Notes under the pieces: generated by a model | The model's database searches: none | What the model saw: only the letters and a program-made list of their open reading frames with translations | Told to the model about the DNA's origin: nothing | Made by a program: the position numbers and the translations under genes | In this document: piece by piece, positions 4,168 through 32,000 of the stretch | Layout: each line of letters begins with the position of its first letter | Position numbering within the stretch: the first letter of the stretch is position 1 | Assembly: GCF_000012925.1 (NCBI RefSeq) | Contig: NC_007517.1 | Coordinates: forward strand, 2,880,001 to 2,912,000 | Direction of reading: 5' to 3' | Length of the DNA: 32,000 nt | From: Geobacter metallireducens GS-15 | Lineage (GTDB): Bacteria > Desulfobacterota > Desulfuromonadia > Geobacterales > Geobacteraceae

Positions 4168-4952
4168 GTCGTTGTTGTTTCCGTGTGATTGTTAGTGGTG
4201 TACCTGAACAGTGAACGGTCCGTCGGTGTCAGAAACTCGCGTATTTCCGGTGTATCGCACCGCCTCATCTCCTCTTCCGTCCCCTCGAAGGCGAGCCGGG
4301 CATGGTGGAGGAACGAAAACCTCCGGGAAACGGCAAAGGCGGTCTCCAGGTCGTGGGTCACCATGAGGGTGGTCTTCCCCTCCCCCTGGAGTCGGAGCAT
4401 CAGGTGCCGGATGTTGTAGACCCCGACGGGGTCGAGGCCGGTGGTGGGCTCGTCGAAAAAGATGTACTCCGGCTCCGCCGCCAACCCCCGGGCAATGGCG
4501 ACCCGTTTCTTCATACCGCCGGAGAGCTCGGCCGGATAGAGGTCGATGGTCTGTTCGAGCCCCACGAAGGAGAGCTTTTCGAGCACGATCCGCTCGATTT
4601 CCTTCTCGGAAAGACGCCCCTCCTCGAAGAGGCGGTACCCCACGTTTTCCCCCACGGTCATGGAGTCGAAGAGGGCCCCCCCCTGGAAGACGATAGCGAT
4701 CTTCTTCCTGACCTGGATCAGTTGCCGCTCCCGCATCCCGCAGATGGAGACGCCGTCGATGGAGATGGTTCCACCATCGGGCTTCAATAGCCCCAGCATG
4801 AGCCTCAGGATGGTGGTCTTCCCGGCCCCGCTCATGCCGAGGATGGTCCGGTTCACCCCCGGCTCCAGAAAGAGGTCGAAGCGGTCGAGGATCGTGCGTC
4901 CCCCCACCGCGTAGGAAACCTGGTCCATCCGTATGCCACGTTCGACAGTCAC
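4164..4952 (-). CDS. mlaF: ABC transporter ATP-binding protein (MlaF-like)
   Basis: Walker A GMSGAGKTT, signature LSGGMKKRV, Walker B IFFDEPTTGLD and H-loop VTHD. GTG start at 4952 preceded by AGGTGA. Confidence 0.9.
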   Translation of the reverse strand: MTVERGIRMDQVSYAVGGRTILDRFDLFLEPGVNRTILGMSGAGKTTILRLMLGLLKPDGGTISIDGVSICGMRERQLIQVRKKIAIVFQGGALFDSMTVGENVGYRLFEEGRLSEKEIERIVLEKLSFVGLEQTIDLYPAELSGGMKKRVAIARGLAAEPEYIFFDEPTTGLDPVGVYNIRHLMLRLQGEGKTTLMVTHDLETAFAVSRRFSFLHHARLAFEGTEEEMRRCDTPEIREFLTPTDRSLFRYTTNNHTETTTT

Positions 4953-4956
4953 TCGA

Positions 4957-5718
4957 TCACCTGAAAACTATGAAAATCTTCGTCATAAAGAAATCGCAGA
5001 CGAGCACCATGATGGACGAGACGACCACCGCCCGCTTGGCCGCGGCCCCCACCCCCTCGGCCCCGCCGCTGGTGGTGAGCCCCGCGTACGAGCCGATCAT
5101 GGCGATGAGAAAGCCGAAGACAAAGGGTTTCGCCACCCCTTCGACGAGATCCTGGAAGACCATGAACTGGGAGAGGGATTTCCAGTACATGAGCAGGTTG
5201 ATGTCGTAGCCGGAGGCGATGACGTATCCCCCCAGGAGCGCCAGGGCGTCGGTAACGACGGCCAGAAGCGGCATGGCCACGAGCATTGCCTTGAGCCGCG
5301 AGGTGACGAGCCGTGTGATGATGTCGGTCCCCTCCACCCGCATGGCGTCCACCTGCTCGGTGACGACCATGGTGCCCAGCTCGGCAGTAATGGACGAGCC
5401 GACCCGCCCTGCCACCATGAGGGAGGAGAGGACCGGCCCCAACTCCTTCACCATGGTGACCGCCACCATCCCCCCCACGTAGCTGGTGGCGGCGAAGGGC
5501 TTCAGCTGGATGAGGGCCTGGAGCGCCATGACCATGCCGGTGAAGAGCCCCGTGAGGCAGACGATAAAAAGGGAGCCGACCCCCATCTTGTCCAGTTGGG
5601 TGATGAACTCCCGATAGTACCAGGGCCTGCGGAAAATCCGTACGACGGCCCTGGCCGAAAGGACGAAGAACGCCTGCAATTCCTGGAGAAACCATTTGAC
5701 CGTGCGCTCTGGGTTCAT
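4957..5718 (-). CDS. mlaE: ABC transporter permease (MlaE-like)
   Basis: 253-aa polytopic protein with MlaE-family features (..ELGPVLSSLMVAGRVGSSITAELGTM..). Its ATG overlaps the lon stop (ATGA at 5715-5718). Confidence 0.88.
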   Translation of the reverse strand: MNPERTVKWFLQELQAFFVLSARAVVRIFRRPWYYREFITQLDKMGVGSLFIVCLTGLFTGMVMALQALIQLKPFAATSYVGGMVAVTMVKELGPVLSSLMVAGRVGSSITAELGTMVVTEQVDAMRVEGTDIITRLVTSRLKAMLVAMPLLAVVTDALALLGGYVIASGYDINLLMYWKSLSQFMVFQDLVEGVAKPFVFGFLIAMIGSYAGLTTSGGAEGVGAAAKRAVVVSSIMVLVCDFFMTKIFIVFR

Positions 5719-8175: not shown

Positions 8176-10101
8176 CTACCCCTCGGCACCGACGGTTTCC
8201 CACTCCTCATACAATCCGGCAATCCGTGCCGTCAGGGCGGCGTGCTCTTCCCCACCCTGCCGGGCCGCTTCCAGATCCTGAAAGAAGGCGGGGTCGGCCA
8301 TCCGCGCCTCCAACTCGGCAAGACGCTCCTCCTCCGCGGCGATGGCCGTCTCCAGCTCTTCCAGCCGCTTCTGGCGCCGCTTCTCGTCCCGCTGACGGGA
8401 CTTCTCCTCCTCCCGCTGGCGCAGCCGCTCTTCTTTTGATTCCGGCACGGAATCCGGGACCGGGGACCGGGGACCGGGGACCGGGGAAATCTGACCATCA
8501 ACCGCGGCCTTCTTCTGGAGATAGTACTCGTAGTCGCCGTGGTAGCTGGTGAGCTGCCCCCCTGCCACCTCCACCACCCGGGTGGCGAGGCCGTCGATGA
8601 AGTAGCGGTCGTGGGAGACGAAGACCACAGTGCCGGGGAAGGTCTTGAGGGCGTCCAGGAGCACGTCCTTGCTGAAGAGGTCCAGGTGGTTGGTGGGCTC
8701 ATCCATGAGGAGCAGGTTCGAAGGGCGCAGGAGCATCTTGGCCAGGGCCAGGCGGTTCCGTTCACCCCCCGAGAGGACCGCCACCTTCTTGTGGATGTCG
8801 TCCCCGGAGAAGAGGAAGGCGCCGAGGATGTCCCGCAGCTGCGGCACCATGGCAAAGGGGGCGTCGGCAAGGAGCTCGTCGTGGACGCTCTTGTCGCTGT
8901 CGAGAACCTGGGCCTGGTCCTGGGCAAAGTAGTCGAGGGCCACGTTGTGCCCCACGATCCGCTCGCCTCCCTCGAAGGGTTTTCCCGCCATAATTCCCAT
9001 GAGGGTTGACTTGCCGGCGCCGTTGTGCCCCACCAGGGCGATCCGCTCCCCCTTCTCCACGGTGAGATCAACGCCGTTCAGGACCACGTTGGGGCCGTAG
9101 GCCTTCACCACGCCGGCAAGCTCCATGGCGATCCGGCCGCTGGCCGGGGGATCGGGGAACCGGAAGCGGATTTTCTTGCGCTCCGGAGGGAGGACGATCC
9201 GCTCGATCTTCTCCAGTTGCTTGATACGGGACTGGACCAGGGACGCCTTGTCGGCCTTGTAGCGGAACCGGCTGATGAAGTCCTCGATCTTCTGGACCTC
9301 CTCGTCCTGGCGCCGCTTCGCCTCCCGCAGGGCCGCCACCCGCTCCTCCCGCTGGACCAGATAGCGGCTGTAGGAGCAGTGGTAGTCGGTGAGGACGCTG
9401 TTCCAGACCTCGGTGATCCGGTGGCAGACCTGGTCCATGAAGAAGCGGTCATGGGAGACGAGAATCACCGAGTGGGGATACTCGCACAGGTACCCCTCCA
9501 GCCAGTTGCGGGCCTCGATGTCCAGGTGGTTGGTGGGCTCGTCCAGCAGGAGCACGTTGGGCTTTTTCAGGAGGAGCTTGGCCAGAGCGATCCGCATCTG
9601 CCACCCGCCGGAGAACTCGCCGCAGTCGCGCCCCCGGTCAGCGGGGAGAAAGCCGAGGCCGTCCAGCACCCGGCATGCCTCCGCCTCCATGGCGTAGCCA
9701 CCCCGCAGCCGGAACTCCTCCTGGAGGTGCCCGTAACGATCAAGAAGCGCACCGTGCTCCGGGTCATCGTGGGGAATTTCCTCAAGGCGCCGGGTAAGGT
9801 CGGCCAGTTCCCGTTCCATCCGCTGGAGGTCGTCCAGGGCCGTCATCACCTCGGCCAGAAGCGGCCTTCCGCGGGTGACGATGCCGTCCTGGGGGAGGTA
9901 GCCGACCGTGGCACCCTTGGCGAAGATCATCTCGCCGGCCGAATGCTCCACGAGCCCGGCGACGATTTTCATGAGGGTCGACTTGCCGGCGCCGTTCTCC
10001 CCCACGAGGCCTACCCGCTCACCCTTTTTCAGGTGCCAGTTGATGCCGGTGAAGAGCGGCCTTCCCGCGAAGTCCTTGGAGAGGTTCTTGAGATGGAGCA
10101 T
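8176..10101 (-). CDS. ABC-F family ATPase (Uup/YheS-like, two ABC domains, charged C-terminal extension)
   Basis: Two Walker A motifs (GENGAGKST, GHNGAGKST), two LSGG signatures and two Walker B motifs (LLLDEPTNHLD, LLMDEPTNHLD), with no TM domain. I place the start at the ATG at 10101 (MLHLKNLSKDF), not the track start at 10149. Confidence 0.9.
   Translation of the reverse strand: MLHLKNLSKDFAGRPLFTGINWHLKKGERVGLVGENGAGKSTLMKIVAGLVEHSAGEMIFAKGATVGYLPQDGIVTRGRPLLAEVMTALDDLQRMERELADLTRRLEEIPHDDPEHGALLDRYGHLQEEFRLRGGYAMEAEACRVLDGLGFLPADRGRDCGEFSGGWQMRIALAKLLLKKPNVLLLDEPTNHLDIEARNWLEGYLCEYPHSVILVSHDRFFMDQVCHRITEVWNSVLTDYHCSYSRYLVQREERVAALREAKRRQDEEVQKIEDFISRFRYKADKASLVQSRIKQLEKIERIVLPPERKKIRFRFPDPPASGRIAMELAGVVKAYGPNVVLNGVDLTVEKGERIALVGHNGAGKSTLMGIMAGKPFEGGERIVGHNVALDYFAQDQAQVLDSDKSVHDELLADAPFAMVPQLRDILGAFLFSGDDIHKKVAVLSGGERNRLALAKMLLRPSNLLLMDEPTNHLDLFSKDVLLDALKTFPGTVVFVSHDRYFIDGLATRVVEVAGGQLTSYHGDYEYYLQKKAAVDGQISPVPGPRSPVPDSVPESKEERLRQREEEKSRQRDEKRRQKRLEELETAIAAEEERLAELEARMADPAFFQDLEAARQGGEEHAALTARIAGLYEEWETVGAEG
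8454..8488. repeat. Five tandem heptamers CCGGGAC CGGGGAC CGGGGAC CGGGGAC CGGGGAA inside the ABC-F coding region
   Basis: Read directly. On the coding (minus) strand it encodes ..SPVPGPRSPVPDS.. between the second ABC domain and the charged tail. Confidence 0.95.
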
Positions 10102-27725: not shown

Positions 27726-28700
27726 ATGCTCAACCCCCTGGCCATCGGCCCCCTGACCCTGGCAAACAATCTGATCCTCGCCCCCATGGCGGGAATTACG
27801 AACCTCCCCTTCCGGCTTCTGGCCCGGGAGGAGGGGGCGAGCCTCTGCTTTACCGAGATGGTGAGCGTGAACGGCCTCGTGCGGGAGGGGCGCAAGACCT
27901 TCGAGCTTCTGCGAAGCGTGCCGGAGGACCGTCCCCTGGGGATCCAGCTCTTCGGCGACGACCCGCAGCTTCTGGCCGAAGGGGCACGGATGGTGGAGGG
28001 GCACGGCGACCTCATCGACATCAACATGGGATGCCCGGTCAAGAAGGTGGTCGGCACCGGGGCCGGCAGCGCCCTGTTGCGGGAGCCGGCAAAGGTCCGG
28101 GCCATCATCCGTGAGACCCGCCGCGCCACACGCCTTCCCCTGACCGTCAAGATCCGCAGCGGCTGGGCCTGCGGCGAGGCCAACTTCCTTGATATCGCCC
28201 AGATTGCCGAGGAGGAGGGGTGCGACGCCATCACCCTCCACCCCCGGAGCCGGTCCCAGATGTTCGAGGGGCACGCCGACTGGCAGCAGATCGCCGAGAT
28301 GAAGCAGAGCGTGAAAATCCCCGTCATCGGCAGCGGCGATCTCTTCACCGCCGCCGACGTCACCGCCATGCTGGCCGAAACCGGCTGCGACGGAGTCATG
28401 GTGGCCCGGGGCGCCCTGGGTAACCCGTGGATCTTCCGCCAGGCCCTGGCCCTCCTGGACGGCAGGGAACCGGACGCACCCTCCACCGGGGAGCGGCTCC
28501 GCGCCGCGCTCCGACACCTGGAGCTCTTCACGGAGCTCGCCGGCGAGCGGGTGGCCCTGCGGGAGATGCGCAAGCACTTCAGCTGGTATTCCCACGGTCT
28601 CTCCGGCGCGGCCCAGTTCCGCAAGGCCGTCAACATCATCGAGGGAAAGGAAGCCCTTCTCGAAGCGCTGCACCGCTTCTTCGCGCCGGAGGCGCCATGA
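27726..28700 (+). CDS. dusB: tRNA-dihydrouridine synthase (DusB-like)
   Basis: LAPMAGITNLPFR.., MGCPVKKV and a TIM-barrel Dus family pattern. Its stop overlaps the kinase ATG (ATGA at 28697-28700). Confidence 0.92.
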   Translation: MLNPLAIGPLTLANNLILAPMAGITNLPFRLLAREEGASLCFTEMVSVNGLVREGRKTFELLRSVPEDRPLGIQLFGDDPQLLAEGARMVEGHGDLIDINMGCPVKKVVGTGAGSALLREPAKVRAIIRETRRATRLPLTVKIRSGWACGEANFLDIAQIAEEEGCDAITLHPRSRSQMFEGHADWQQIAEMKQSVKIPVIGSGDLFTAADVTAMLAETGCDGVMVARGALGNPWIFRQALALLDGREPDAPSTGERLRAALRHLELFTELAGERVALREMRKHFSWYSHGLSGAAQFRKAVNIIEGKEALLEALHRFFAPEAP

Positions 28701-29788
28701 GCCCGGAAAGCCCCAACGAAGCGTTCCTTGCCACCATCATCGACAGCGTCGGCGACGGGGTCATCGTCATCGACCTGGGGGGGCGGATCACCCTCATGAA
28801 CCCTGCGGCCGAGGAGATCATCGCCATCTCCCGGCGCCAGGCCATGGGGCACCCCTTCGCGGCCCTCCTCGGCAGTCAGGAGATTCTGGTGGATATGGTC
28901 GCCAAGACCGCCGCCACCGGCATGACCATCTCCGACAACGAGAACATCGTCATCAGGAAGGCGAAGCAGCTTACCCCGGTCGCGGTCACCACGTTTCCGC
29001 TCCTGCGGCAGGACGGCGAGCCCATCGGCACCATCCTCATGCTGCGGGACCTGACGAACATCCGGGAACTGGAAGATGCGGTCCGCCACGCCGACCGGCT
29101 CTCCACCCTCGGCACCCTGGCGGCGGGCCTGGCCCACGAGATCAAGAACCCTCTGGGGGGGATCAAGGGGGCGGCCCAGCTTCTGGAAATGGAGCTCCCC
29201 CCCGAGAGCGAACTGCGGGACAACGTCCGGGTCGTGGTCAGGGAGGTGGACCGGGTCAACCGGATCGTGGAGGAGCTCCTGGCACTCTCATCGCCCCGCA
29301 AGCTCCAACTCACCAAGGTGAACCTCCACAAGATCCTCGGCGACATTGTCACTCTCAGGAAACGGGCCACGGAAGGGAAGTCCGTCACGTTCCAGCAGCA
29401 GTTCGACCCGAGCATCCCGCCGATCCTGGCCGACGAGGGGCTCCTGACCCAGCTCTTCCTGAACCTGATCAAGAACGCCGTGGAGGCGGTGGACGAGCGG
29501 GGCACCATCCGGGTCGCGAGCCGGGTCCTCTCCGACTACAGCATGACCCCGAAGGGGGAGCGCCGCTCCCGCATGGTGGCCGTCGATGTCCGCGACGACG
29601 GCCCCGGTATCCCCAGGGAGCAACTGGAGCAGCTCTTCACCCCCTTCTTCACCACCAAGGCCAAGGGGACCGGACTCGGCCTCGCCATCTGCCAGAAGAT
29701 CGTCACAGAGCACCGGGGCATGCTCAAGGTGGAATCGGACCCGGGCACGGGGACGACGTTCACGGTGATGCTGCCGTTAATTCAGTAA
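28697..29788 (+). CDS. NtrB-type sensor histidine kinase (PAS, HisKA, HATPase_c), cytoplasmic
   Basis: PAS-like N-terminus (IIDSVGDGVIVIDLGGRITLMNPAAEE), H-box LAHEIKNPLGGI, N-box LNLIKNAVEA, G1 DDGPGI and G2 GTGLGLAI. I place the start at the ATG at 28697, coupled to dusB, not at the track start 28427. Confidence 0.9.
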   Translation: MSPESPNEAFLATIIDSVGDGVIVIDLGGRITLMNPAAEEIIAISRRQAMGHPFAALLGSQEILVDMVAKTAATGMTISDNENIVIRKAKQLTPVAVTTFPLLRQDGEPIGTILMLRDLTNIRELEDAVRHADRLSTLGTLAAGLAHEIKNPLGGIKGAAQLLEMELPPESELRDNVRVVVREVDRVNRIVEELLALSSPRKLQLTKVNLHKILGDIVTLRKRATEGKSVTFQQQFDPSIPPILADEGLLTQLFLNLIKNAVEAVDERGTIRVASRVLSDYSMTPKGERRSRMVAVDVRDDGPGIPREQLEQLFTPFFTTKAKGTGLGLAICQKIVTEHRGMLKVESDPGTGTTFTVMLPLIQ

Positions 29789-29789
29789 C

Positions 29790-29867
29790 CAGGGACCAGG
29801 AACCGGGGACCAGTGGAATCAAAGTCAAGCGACTTTCGGTTTTACCGGTCCCCGGTCCCCGGTCCCG
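29790..29867. repeat. Inverted heptamer-array element, copy A: (CNGGRAC)x4, 29-nt spacer, (GGTCCCC)x3
   Basis: Left arm at 29790-29817 and right arm at 29847-29867. 20 of 24 aligned positions are complementary. The spacer holds the mini-hairpin AAAGTC-aagc-GACTTT. Confidence 0.9.
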
Positions 29868-29885
29868 GATTTCCGAGGTTTTATC

Positions 29886-31328
29886 ATGTTATTGCACCGC
29901 ATACTCGTAGCCGACGACGAAGAAAGCATGCGCTGGGTCCTCTCCAAGGCCCTGCGGAAAAAGGGATTTTCCGTGGATCTCGCCCGGGACGGCGAAGAGG
30001 CCCTGCGCCTCATCCAGTCCGGCGACTATGATCTGGCGATCCTTGACATCAAGATGCCCGGCATTTCGGGGCTCGACCTCCTGGACCGGGTGAAGGAGCT
30101 GAAGAGCGACCTCCTCATGGTGATCATGACCGCCGAGGCAAGCATGAAGAACGCCGTGGAGGCCATGAAGCGCGGCGCCTACGACTACATCACCAAGCCC
30201 TTCGACCTGGACGTGATCGACGCCATCATCGAGAAGGTGAACCGGGCCAGGGAGATCACCTCCCAGATGTCGATCCTCCGGGAGGAACTGAAGGACCGCT
30301 ATCTCCTGGAGAAGAACATCGTCGGTAACTCCCCGGCCATGCGGGAGGTCTACAAGACCATCGGCAAGGTGGCTCCCAGCGACGTAACGGTGCTGGTGCA
30401 GGGGGAGTCGGGGACCGGCAAGGAGCTCATCGCCCGGGCCATCCATTTCAACTCCAAACGGATCGGCAAGCCGTTCATTGCCCTCAACTGCGCAGCGATC
30501 CCCAAGGAACTCCTGGAGAGCGAGCTCTTCGGCTTCGAGAAGGGGGCCTTCACCGGCGCCGCGGAGCGCAAACTCGGCAAGTTCGAGCAGGCCAACGGCG
30601 GCACTATCTTCCTGGACGAGATCGGCGACATGCCCCTGGACCTCCAGGCGAAGATCCTGCGGGTCCTCCAGGAGAAGGAGGTGACCCGCACCGGTGGGAG
30701 CCAGAACATCGCCGTGGACGTGCGGATCGTGGCGGCCACCAACCAGAACCTGGAGGAACTGGCCCGGAACAAACAGTTCCGGGAAGACCTCTACTACCGC
30801 CTGAACGTGGTGCCCATCCAGCTGGTGCCGCTGCGGGAGCGCAAGGAGGACATCCCGGCCCTGGTGGAGTACTTCCTCCACAAGACCTGTGCCGAACTGG
30901 AGGTCCCCGGCAGGACCTGCTCCCCCGAGACCATGGCGCTCCTCACCGCCTACTCCTGGCCCGGCAACGTGCGGGAGCTGGAGAACACCATCAAAAGGGC
31001 CGTGATCCTCTCCTCCGACCCGCTCCTCACGCCGGCAGACTTTCCGGGGCTCCGCATCCAGCGCACCGGCGAGGCCGTCGCCACCGACGAGCTGTCGCTT
31101 GAGGCCCTGGTGGACATGAAGCTGCGGGCGAGCCTCACCAATCTCGACAAGATGGAGACCGGCGACATCTACAACCTGGTCCTCAAACAGATCGAACGCC
31201 CCCTCATCCGCTTCGTCCTGGAAAAGACCCGGGGGAACCAAGTGAAGGGCGCCGAAATCCTCGGCATCAACCGGAACACACTCCGGAAGAAGATCCAGGA
31301 ACTGGGCATCGAAATCAGGAGAGACTGA
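29886..31328 (+). CDS. Sigma54-dependent response regulator (NtrC family: REC, AAA+ with GAFTGA, Fis-type HTH)
   Basis: REC with the phospho-acceptor context DLAILDIKMPG. AAA+ with GESGTGKE, GAFTGA and FLDEIGDM. C-terminal HTH NQVKGAEILGINRNTLRKKI. Confidence 0.93.
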   Translation: MLLHRILVADDEESMRWVLSKALRKKGFSVDLARDGEEALRLIQSGDYDLAILDIKMPGISGLDLLDRVKELKSDLLMVIMTAEASMKNAVEAMKRGAYDYITKPFDLDVIDAIIEKVNRAREITSQMSILREELKDRYLLEKNIVGNSPAMREVYKTIGKVAPSDVTVLVQGESGTGKELIARAIHFNSKRIGKPFIALNCAAIPKELLESELFGFEKGAFTGAAERKLGKFEQANGGTIFLDEIGDMPLDLQAKILRVLQEKEVTRTGGSQNIAVDVRIVAATNQNLEELARNKQFREDLYYRLNVVPIQLVPLRERKEDIPALVEYFLHKTCAELEVPGRTCSPETMALLTAYSWPGNVRELENTIKRAVILSSDPLLTPADFPGLRIQRTGEAVATDELSLEALVDMKLRASLTNLDKMETGDIYNLVLKQIERPLIRFVLEKTRGNQVKGAEILGINRNTLRKKIQELGIEIRRD

Positions 31329-31331
31329 AAG

Positions 31332-31458
31332 CCGGGACCGGGGATCAGGGACCGGGGATCAGGAAAAATCAAAAACAGCAACAAGCGAATCGGTACCATG
31401 GCCATCTACGGAGCATTACCGGGTTTTCCCGGTCCCTGGTCCCCGGTCCCCGGTCCCG
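31332..31458. repeat. Inverted heptamer-array element, copy B: (CNGGGAY)x5, 64-nt spacer, (GGTCCCN)x4
   Basis: Left arm at 31332-31366 (CCGGGAC CGGGGAT CAGGGAC CGGGGAT CAGGAAA). Right arm at 31431-31458 (GGTCCCT GGTCCCC GGTCCCC GGTCCCG). About 26 of 31 positions are complementary. The spacer ends are homologous to copy A. Confidence 0.9.
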
Positions 31459-31485
31459 AATTCCGACTGAAAGGAGGAATTACCA

Positions 31486-32000
31486 ATGGGCATCATGGAC
31501 ACGTTTTTTCTCGACCGGAACCAGGCGGTACTCGTCGTCGTGGACGTGCAGGAGAAGCTCTGCGCGGCCATGAACCAGGAGGTCCTGGCACAACTCACGA
31601 AGAACACCGGCATCCTCCTGGAGGCCGCGAAGGAGCTCGGCATCCCGGTGGTGGCCACGGAGCAGTACGTGAAGGGTCTCGGCTGCACCGTGCCGGAGCT
31701 GCGGCAACAGTTCGAGGGAGCAGCCTTCGAGAAGATGGCCTTCAGCTGCTGCGGCGATGAGGCCTTCCTGAACCGGTTGGCGGAGCTGGGGCGGAAGCAG
31801 GTGATCGTCACCGGCATGGAGACCCACGTCTGCGTCCTCCAGACGATCCTGGAGCTCCGGGAGCGGGGATATCACGTCCACCTGGTGAAGGATGCGGTCA
31901 TGAGTCGCAAAAAAGGGAACTGGAAGGTGGGGGTCAACGCCGCAGCAGCGGCCGGCGCGGCCATCACCTCCACCGAGGCGGCCCTGTTCCAGCTCCTGCG
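31486..32000 (+). CDS. Isochorismatase-family hydrolase (partial, continues past the window end)
   Basis: Missing from the ORF track because it runs off the edge. My translation from the ATG at 31486, behind SD AAGGAGG, reads MGIMDTFFLDRNQAVLVVVDVQEKLCAAM...EKMAFSCC...VIVTGMETHVCVLQTILEL.. This shows the D/K/C triad pattern of the cysteine-hydrolase family. Confidence 0.85.
   Translation, partial: MGIMDTFFLDRNQAVLVVVDVQEKLCAAMNQEVLAQLTKNTGILLEAAKELGIPVVATEQYVKGLGCTVPELRQQFEGAAFEKMAFSCCGDEAFLNRLAELGRKQVIVTGMETHVCVLQTILELRERGYHVHLVKDAVMSRKKGNWKVGVNAAAAAGAAITSTEAALFQLL

Follow-up and report, generated by a model that had tools for sequence, protein, structure and literature searches.

Inverted heptamer arrays at both ends of a gnfM orthologue

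A 32,000-nt stretch of the Geobacter metallireducens GS-15 genome (contig NC_007517.1, positions 2,880,001 to 2,912,000; hereafter the window) contains an operon with the gene order dus, gnfL-like kinase, gnfM and isochorismatase-family gene, in which two palindromic elements, here called copy A and copy B, lie at either end of the gnfM orthologue. Each consists of a G-rich tandem array of heptamers (G-arm), a spacer and a C-rich array in inverted orientation (C-arm). Copy A separates the gene for a sensor histidine kinase from that for a sigma-54-dependent response regulator, and copy B separates the regulator gene from the next gene (Table 1). The flanking genes are all on the plus strand, and the G-arms begin close to a stop codon, 2 nt after TAA in copy A and 5 nt after TGA in copy B. 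Homologues of the regulator with 91% identity carry the NCBI name GnfM. Orthologues of the kinase are 363 aa proteins with the same PAS, HisKA and HATPase_c domains, and their genes overlap the upstream Dus gene by 4 nt.

Table 1. Genes, heptamer arrays and flanking duplication in the window, with the corresponding published elements (Fig S2 and Table S4 are those of Aklujkar et al. 2009; ORF, open reading frame; RBS, ribosome-binding site).
Feature	Window position	Genome position	Strand	Details
Third array (Gmet_H424)	8456-8487		+	GGGACCG x 4.6, 100% match; inside the minus-strand ABC-F gene Gmet_2545 (8176-10101)
Kinase gene Gmet_2562 (sensor histidine kinase, GnfL-like)	28697-29788		+	PAS, HisKA, HATPase_c; ORF end 29788, TAA 29786-29788; name from Table S4
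Copy A G-arm (within Gmet_H425)	29790-29813		+	CAGGGAC CAGGAAC CGGGGAC; exact match to Fig S2 row
Copy A spacer	29814-29846		+	Inner hairpin AAAGTC-aagc-GACTTT at 29821-29836; spacer kept in L123/L124
Copy A C-arm (within Gmet_H426)	29847-29867		+	GGTCCCC GGTCCCC GGTCCCG; minus strand in the paper
Regulator gene Gmet_2563 (sigma-54-dependent response regulator, GnfM orthologue)	29886-31328		+	ATG 29886, TGA 31326-31328; Table S4
Left copy of 9-bp direct duplication	31323-31331		+	GACTGAAAG; includes regulator stop TGA
Copy B, 134-nt insert (Gmet_H427/H428)	31332-31465		+	G-arm, 70-nt spacer, C-arm, outer tail GAATTCC
Copy B G-arm	31334-31360		+	GGGACC G GGGATC A GGGACC G GGGATC
Copy B C-arm	31431-31457		+	GGTCCC T GGTCCC C GGTCCC C GGTCCC
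Right copy of 9-bp direct duplication	31466-31474		+	GACTGAAAG; runs into RBS AAGGAGG of the isochorismatase-family gene, ATG 31486
Gmet_H424		2888448-2888492	+	'within Gmet_2545' (Table S4)
Gmet_H425		2909777-2909821	+	3' of Gmet_2562, 5' of Gmet_2563
Gmet_H426		2909837-2909881	-	3' of Gmet_2562, 5' of Gmet_2563
Gmet_H427		2911326-2911370	+	3' of Gmet_2563, 5' of Gmet_2564
Gmet_H428		2911421-2911465	-	3' of Gmet_2563, 5' of Gmet_2564

Period-7 arrays were found in the window by Tandem Repeats Finder at 8456-8487, 29788-29813, 29845-29866, 31341-31363 and 31428-31457. The word GGTCCCCGGTCCC, allowing up to two mismatches, occurs 16 times in the window compared with 4.0 +/- 2.0 times in shuffled sequences, none of 100 shuffles reaching 16. 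No inverted repeats in the whole window are stronger than the palindromes of these two copies, whose arms of 35-42 nt are 74-96% complementary. The G-arm of copy A has three recognisable GGGACC-type units, two of the three carrying G-to-A changes. An initial annotation of copy A, made from the letters of the sequence, had given its strings, coordinates and inner hairpin correctly to the base. Its count of 20 pairing positions out of 24 needs revision, as the arms have 18 paired positions out of 20, the other two being A.C mismatches. The homologous copy that it placed at the other end of the regulator gene is present as copy B, whilst the third array, at 8456-8487, was absent from it.

Both elements are predicted to fold stably as RNA. 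The region 29780-29885 gave a folding energy of -56.2 kcal/mol (z = -6.2) and the region 31325-31486 gave -83.3 kcal/mol (z = -6.4), with no shuffle as good in either case; the predicted stem of copy A includes 18 arm pairs and that of copy B 27. A stable hairpin at copy A, as proposed in the initial annotation, is therefore borne out at the level of prediction. The annotation had also held that copy A is not a classical terminator, and we reached the same conclusion for both copies. An intrinsic (Rho-independent) terminator was rejected as the stem is not directly followed by a T-run (only TTT follows copy A), and a terminator scan of 28400-32000 called nothing at either element; nor did the promoter scan make a call at copy A or copy B. 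Folding of the two strands gave -56.2 (sense) versus -64.6 kcal/mol (antisense) for copy A and -76.2 versus -71.3 kcal/mol for copy B. Rfam covariance models had no match at gathering score across the whole window, and a relaxed search of 29600-31600 returned only generic long-hairpin (miRNA precursor) models far below their cut-offs.

Both copies are already catalogued members of a published family. Aklujkar et al. 2009 (BMC Microbiol 9:109) described 49 elements, designated Gmet_H4##, with four tandem GGGACCG heptamers between and within genes. Their function was given as unknown, and they were called predicted regulatory RNA or putative global regulatory elements. The corresponding 45-mers of the window are identical to rows H424 to H428 of Fig S2 in that paper (genome coordinate = window coordinate + 2,879,999, which makes the window 2,880,000-2,911,999 in the numbering of the paper), copy A being Gmet_H425/H426 and copy B Gmet_H427/H428. 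According to Table S4 of the paper, most of the 49 copies lie 3' of one gene and 5' of the next, the intergenic ones mostly between co-directional genes, whilst several intragenic copies lie in linkers of fused or multidomain proteins; many copies form a plus/minus pair 0-400 nt apart. In the Fig S2 alignment approximately 19 of the 47 rows examined have a stop triplet aligned in one column, which precedes the first GGGACC by 5 nt. The published listing enters the arms separately, as 'four tandem heptanucleotide repeats', and does not treat their pairing, insertion polymorphism or occurrence beyond Geobacter.

Two further observations concern this catalogue. At a second histidine kinase/sigma-54 regulator locus, Gmet_3157/3158 (genome 3,553,644-3,555,318), H444 (plus) follows the kinase gene and H445 (minus) follows the regulator gene (Aklujkar et al. 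2009), the two forming one convergent pair around the whole regulator gene. Under the name 'class 1', the same paper describes arrays of four tandem octamers (GTTGCTYN) that occur in pairs and mostly adjoin ISGme8 (IS110-family) transposase genes; this suggests that the octamer pairs are insertion targets or ends.

Filled, decayed and empty junctions in relatives

Orthologous loci were collected via homologues of GnfM, and the identities given here are those of the regulator. We refer to the kinase-regulator gap as junction A and to the gap between the regulator and the next gene as junction B; in GS-15 these hold copy A and the 134-nt insert (31332-31465), respectively. In L121/L122 (98% identity) junction A is 38 nt long and forms no hairpin (-5.4 kcal/mol, z = 0.2), and junction B is 16 nt long, reading gacTGAaaggagg...ATG. 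The locus of G. sulfurreducens type (L129) has no hairpin at junction A (-9.8 kcal/mol) and the same ancestral sequence as L121 at junction B. In L123/L124 (96%) junction A contains copy A with decayed arms (-35.6 kcal/mol), whilst junction B is without copy B.

Where the empty site of L121, L122 and L129 reads gacTGAaaggagg, GS-15 has GACTGAAAG on both sides of copy B. The left GACTGAAAG retains the stop codon of the regulator gene and the right one retains the downstream RBS. The null frequency of a shared flank word of 9 nt is approximately 0.001 per pair, as estimated from the flanks of 36 heptamer pairs. This comparison of sequences shows that copy B was inserted recently and is flanked by a 9-bp duplication. 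We infer that copy A is an insertion between a stop codon and the next RBS.

Other Geobacteraceae loci carry different heptamer-built palindromes or repeats at junction A. In L125 (2900-2995) a palindrome of GGGGCT/GGGACT units folds at -56.4 kcal/mol, and in Geomobilimonas (L130, 2400-2500) units of GGGCAAT type fold at -53.7 kcal/mol. CCTTCAG repeats are found in L126/L127 (L126, 2439-2500), and C-rich remnants in L128 (2435-2500, -30 kcal/mol). Different heptamer palindromes thus occupy the same position among Geobacteraceae, and therefore the elements are gained, lost and replaced at junction A, which looks like a hot spot for them. By the same comparison, the hairpin does not belong to the conserved elements of the gnfL-gnfM operon. 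Separately, the regulator-hydrolase junction of the Geomobilimonas locus (L130, 3947-4035) contains an unrelated palindrome, AGGTAGAGGTAAAGT....

The initial annotation had suggested that the hairpin might set the expression ratio of kinase to regulator or mark a processing site. A dedicated cis-regulatory mRNA hairpin of this kind would fit the position of the predicted stable stem, exactly between stop codon and RBS, as well as the presence of different heptamer hairpins at the same junction in other Geobacteraceae (L125, L130, L128) and of arrays at both ends of the regulator gene at Gmet_3157/3158. However, the hairpin is absent from the 98% relative and the G. sulfurreducens-type loci, where z is close to 0, and its arms have decayed in the 96% relative. 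Moreover, the same element turns up in 49 unrelated settings, among them flagellar, cobalamin and thiamine genes as well as linkers within coding sequence. We therefore consider a dedicated device improbable. Simple presence or absence among close relatives had been named in the annotation as grounds for giving up a functional reading, and the absent and decayed copies at these junctions come near to that situation. Its further suggestion of a mobile repeat, resembling repetitive extragenic palindromic (REP) sequences or MITEs (miniature inverted-repeat transposable elements), lies closest to the evidence, namely a dispersed family of 49 copies, presence and absence in relatives and the insertion of copy B with its 9-bp duplication.

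Heptamer pairs and enclosed genes in other lineages

A scan for GGGACCRGGGACCRGGGACC, using one genome per species, found at least 120 loci, which were then rescanned with attention to register; the counts in this paragraph are for the matches listed. In the general architecture, the G-arm and the C-arm have approximately 4 units each and are separated by 18-400 nt of spacer. Matches came from Xanthomonas, Pseudoxanthomonas, Stenotrophomonas, relatives of Lysobacter, Rhodanobacteraceae and Wenzhouxiangella, and also from Vicinamibacterales, other Acidobacteriota, Thermoanaerobaculia, Geomobilimonas and relatives of Geobacter. Pairs were convergent in 38 cases and divergent in 5, a count that includes two overlapping self-matches. 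The mode of the unit number is 4, with 3 to 15 units in some lineages, and exactly four units were present in 43 of 67 arrays of the Xanthomonadales sample. The inner flank in other lineages, cGGGAAAAGCC, resembles the Geobacter flanks GGGAAAACC and GGGAAAGGC. With a crude gene caller, at least 19 of 36 pairs from other phyla had the G-arm no more than 18 nt after the end of an ORF with high G+C content at third codon positions, on the coding strand.

The pairs vary between related loci. A full 4+4 pair with a 36-nt spacer is found in P. composti (L065, 7239-7328), whilst the same junction in X. translucens (L070, 6600-6640) has only GGGACC-GGTCCCCGGTCCCC, a short form that is either a collapsed hairpin or a seed. 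One metagenome contig (L018) ends, at 5074, exactly where its orthologue L075 has a heptamer pair (4554-4635). The elements therefore probably break short-read assemblies, and counts from metagenome-assembled genomes would then be underestimates. Among 2.9 million viral contigs there were 34 matches, mostly single arrays, with no sign of phage carriage. A literature search by the repeat sequence itself found no paper.

Some pairs in other lineages enclose a gene. Orthologous convergent pairs in X. codiaei (L024, 5209-5645) and P. wuyuanensis (L040, 6427-6866) have spacers of approximately 385 nt containing a gene that matches PF05635 (23S_rRNA_IVP, E = 4e-37) as well as TIGR02436 ('four helix bundle protein') and, faintly, Avd, a protein of diversity-generating retroelements (DGRs). 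We refer to it as the gene for the 23S rRNA intervening-sequence protein (IVP). Genes of this family flanked by heptamer arrays were also found in Methylomirabilota (L095, 6139-6600) and Verrucomicrobiota (L094, 1773-2400). In the best 120 matches of a protein search with IVP, all were from Xanthomonadales.

The association was also approached from the gene side, with 80 loci (L165-L244) from metagenome contigs that were picked by protein pattern only, regardless of repeats. In a first scan, 48 of 151 IVP gene flanks had a period-7 array and 5 more a period-8 array, compared with 2/109 and 1/109, respectively, in control regions 650-900 nt away; since most of the control sequence is coding, the raw enrichment exaggerates the specificity, whilst the statistics on orientation and inversion are unaffected. 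A stricter scan found an adjacent array at 36 of the 80 genes, with unit number peaking at 4-5. Where arrays were present on both sides they were inverted in 11/11 cases, with no more than one mismatch in the unit. Upstream arrays were richer in G than in C in 22/24 cases and downstream arrays richer in C than in G in 20/23, with median gaps of 28 nt from array to start codon and 32 nt from stop codon to array. The orientation and inversion of the arrays therefore place the IVP gene inside a convergent pair. The heptamer itself differs by locus (GGGATTA, GGGACTG, AGGTAAC, ATGGTTG, TGAGTTG, GATATCA and others), and many of these are unable to form quadruplexes.

One gene-bearing cassette separates carA from carB in five members of the Xanthomonadales (X. 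campestris, X. translucens, Lysobacter arvi, X. codiaei and P. wuyuanensis). It is 437-440 nt long, with GGGACCR arms around the IVP gene. The G-arm forms the tail of carA, a leader CGGGAAAGGC... precedes the gene, the C-arm encodes the tail of the IVP (..DPGSPVPGPRSRS), and carB starts 3-6 nt after the C-arm. The mean pairwise identity is 94% for the arms compared with 73% for the interior (the gene), 85% for the tail of carA and 92% for the head of carB, and the arms of the cassette are therefore constrained. The leader CGGGAAAGGC is the inner-flank consensus of ORF-less pairs, and P. wuyuanensis has both the gene-bearing cassette (L040) and an ORF-less pair (L091). Two minor points were noted at these loci. 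In L245-L247, L024 and L040 the arms are read as protein, the C-terminal tail of carA running through the G-arm and the IVP tail ..PGSPVPGPRSRS coming from the C-arm. Several IVP proteins bear the JGI label 'carbamoyl-phosphate synthase large subunit', which is apparently a mis-annotation by neighbourhood.

It is possible, if somewhat short of probable, that inverted arrays of four to five heptamers are the arms of an intervening-sequence-like cassette whose full form includes the IVP gene, with ORF-less pairs as miniature derivatives or landing pads; IVP may recognise the heptads or have a part in spreading the element. Our literature search found no paper tying IVP genes to heptamer arrays. 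The arrays themselves are already known and of low novelty, whilst their link with IVP genes is a lead worth a genome-wide test. In G. metallireducens, Gmet_2891, a 'conserved hypothetical' gene that the paper of Aklujkar et al. places in the 394-nt spacer between H436 and H437, within genome positions 3,272,000-3,272,520, is a candidate for such a gene.

A probable intervening-sequence-like insertion and its alternatives

On balance, we think that copy A and copy B are probably ORF-less, intervening-sequence-like hairpin insertions which are tolerated and largely selfish or neutral, and not a kinase:regulator device. The insertion site is the short gap that separates a stop codon from the following RBS, and the arms would be transcribed within the RNA of the dus-gnfL-gnfM-hydrolase operon. 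The arms would then pair into a GC-rich stem of 20-30 bp, looping the insert out of the message as in an rRNA intervening sequence, and the stem would be an expected substrate for RNase III, an obstacle to 3'-exonucleases, or both. Cistrons might thereby become uncoupled, gnfM from its neighbours, as a side effect. The arrays are dispensable in close relatives and should not be counted among the components of the GnfL/GnfM nitrogen-fixation circuit, although they could still perturb the operon mRNA in GS-15. Their wider value lies in the heptamer repeat class, in which four-unit GGGACCR pairs with shared flanks occur in Geobacter and Xanthomonadales and related forms occur elsewhere. A filled and an empty site, with the 9-bp duplication, and the frequent enclosure of IVP genes make the question of origin and function testable.

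Among the closest known counterparts are the intervening sequences of 23S rRNA that carry an S23p/23S_rRNA_IVP gene, as in Leptospira and Coxiella. That of Coxiella is 428-444 nt long with a 28-bp stem which is cut by RNase III, and its origin was described as unclear (Warrier et al. 2016, PMC4990558). Shared features are terminal inverted repeats, a stem of approximately 28 bp (equal to 4 x 7), the existence of short ORF-less versions and insertion where an interruption of the RNA is tolerated. Moreover, gene-bearing intervening sequences of approximately 430-445 nt compare with 437-440 nt for the carA-carB cassette. The difference is one of site, as intervening sequences lie in helices of 23S rRNA, whereas the copies in the window lie in intercistronic gaps of mRNA and contain no ORF.

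MITEs, Correia elements and the Rickettsia palindromic elements are similarly short, non-autonomous and multicopy with inverted ends, and copy B has a target duplication. Read-through as protein, another MITE-like trait, is seen in the ABC-F linker, the carA tail and the IVP tail. The heptamer pairs differ in that their interior is not conserved, spacers range from 18 to 400 nt and a duplication is absent in 35 of 36 pairs. In addition, their gene-bearing relatives contain a four-helix-bundle gene and not the transposase expected of a MITE parent.

Several points weigh against the reading as intervening-sequence-like insertions. A profile built from the 80 IVP proteins had no match in the window or in the Geobacterales loci examined, and thus the link to Geobacter depends on the shared heptamer, flanks and architecture only. 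The spacers of the matches listed are mostly unrelated between copies, unlike those of classical MITEs. Target-site duplication was rejected as a trait of the family, being found in 1 of 36 pairs (copy B only), and the other 35, including copy A, match the null with a mean longest shared flank word of 4.0 versus 4.07 nt. Strand-specific G.U compensation, which would be a sign of selection on the sense RNA, was also rejected, the mismatches having no strand bias. Every step of the mechanism after transcription is one that we infer. Lastly, a host function is possible given the strong conservation of the arms in Xanthomonadales and the 83% positional conservation of the related repeats described by Rehm et al. 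2015 (PLoS One 10:e0144275).

Heptamer repeats of other sequence families offer further comparisons. Rehm et al. 2015 described those of Xanthomonas (GGGAATC) and Nostoc (GGGGA[C/T]T), with 70-75 convergent plus/minus pairs per genome and rare intragenic copies. They measured quadruplex formation in vitro by circular dichroism, found the 83% positional conservation between two species along with length variation between related species, and concluded that the function 'remains to be elucidated'. Their class shares with the window arrays the period of 7, a G3-4 tract per unit and the placement after stop codons between co-directional genes. However, its consensus is GGGNATC or GGGGA(C/T)T, whereas the window has GGGGACC as its unit, with GGGGATC in no more than two units of copy B, so that the architecture is the same and the sequence family another. 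Neither Geobacter nor GGGGACC is mentioned by Rehm et al. 2015. According to Mori et al. 2018, who likewise mention neither, tandem repeats in prokaryotic intergenic DNA have a period of seven more often than any other, and there is 'no clear clue' to what these heptamers do.

Three different alternatives treat the arrays as functional or as arising in place, beginning with DNA or RNA structure. The four G3-4 tracts of (GGGGACC)4 could fold into a G-quadruplex as DNA or as RNA, whilst the C strand would form an i-motif; the quadruplex would affect transcription, replication or translation, and the hairpin would then be a competing state. Four units are the modal number in every lineage sampled and are also the minimum for a quadruplex. 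Both arms of copy B satisfy the rule G3+N1-7 x4, and the ABC-F array, like each copy B arm, has at least four G3 tracts. The in vitro measurements of Rehm et al. 2015 were made on the related repeats GGGAATC and GGGGA(C/T)T. In the window each copy A arm has three G3 tracts at most. Several of the heptamers that enclose IVP genes (AGGTAAC, ATGGTTG, TGAGTTG, GATATCA) cannot form a quadruplex, yet share the period, the unit number and the inverted layout. In addition, the conserved flanks outside the G-tracts are left unexplained, and where both arms exist, a GC stem of 28 bp would be expected to win over a quadruplex. Quadruplex formation is possible for the G-rich subfamily, but as a general principle it is weakened by copy A and by the heptamers without G-tracts, and we regard it as an unlikely explanation of the elements.

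The strict 7-nt register with 4-5 units across unrelated heptamers could instead reflect protein binding, each arm offering approximately four 7-bp sites for cooperative binding by a nucleoid-associated protein or 'global regulator', a binder of ribbon-helix-helix type, or IVP itself. Precedents exist, as the omega repressor binds arrays of 7-bp heptads, MetJ binds tandem 8-bp boxes and the DGR protein Avd, which is related to IVP, is a nucleic-acid-binding pentamer. The greater conservation of the arms compared with the enclosed gene would agree with such a role, as would the annotation of the family as putative global regulatory elements by Aklujkar et al. 2009. However, no candidate binding protein was identified for G. 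metallireducens and no IVP gene was found in the Geobacter loci examined, and arrays are also found within coding sequence and, in relatives, have been free to decay. Protein binding as the reason for the arrays is, in our judgement, doubtful.

Growth in place by polymerase slippage, starting from a seed such as a GGGACC|GGTCCC palindrome and needing no transposition, would account for the range of 3 to 15 units in some lineages, for the minimal GGGACC-GGTCCCCGGTCCCC of X. translucens at the junction which holds a full 4+4 pair in P. composti, and for the length variation between related species reported by Rehm et al. 2015. It is difficult to reconcile with copy B, a complete 134-nt insert with a 9-bp duplication relative to the ancestral empty site. 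The recurrence of the same flanks, outer as well as inner, at unrelated loci and in different phyla also speaks against slippage, as does the sharp mode at four units, and we give it slightly less credence than the quadruplex or protein-binding readings.

Intergenic repeats of other kinds also bear on the comparison. Intergenic tandem repeats of heptamers were noted as early as 1990, as the cyanobacterial STRR repeats, and again in 2015 and 2018, and the heptamer unit of Nostoc is said to be the STRR1 repeat of Mazel et al. 1990. REP sequences and bacterial interspersed mosaic elements of enterobacteria, and the REPINs of Pseudomonas, are, like the window copies, palindromes dispersed through intergenic DNA, where they lie at 3' ends of genes inside operons, and REP hairpins, that of malE-malF being an example, can have a stabilising effect on upstream mRNA. 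The window copies differ in having no GTAG/CGTC tag and in having arms made of tandem heptamers. Mobilisation as REP/REPIN elements by a REP-associated tyrosine transposase (RAYT, IS200/IS605-like), which would match a dispersed intergenic palindrome of inverted doublets that mostly lacks target-site duplications and lies between co-directional genes, is very improbable given the missing tag, an arm that is a heptamer array and not itself a palindrome, and the 9-bp duplication of copy B.

The remaining member of the family in the window is the intragenic array Gmet_H424. It is translated as SPVPGPRSPVPD in the hypervariable linker of the ABC-F protein. Orthologues down to 83% identity have similar ..RSPVPD.. 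strings in the same linker, and since these already encode the string no comparison of filled and empty sites was obtained for this array. From its distribution among the orthologues, the array is old and tolerated as coding sequence. One orthologue (P0122) has a longer, apparently doubled version of the string. Elsewhere in the window, an AT-rich intergenic region (2798-2878) contains nested tandem repeats unrelated to the heptamer family, in which GGAAGCTAATTCT x 2 is followed by a 33-nt unit, TAATTCTTAAGCTAATTCTGGGGACATCATACT, x 2.2.

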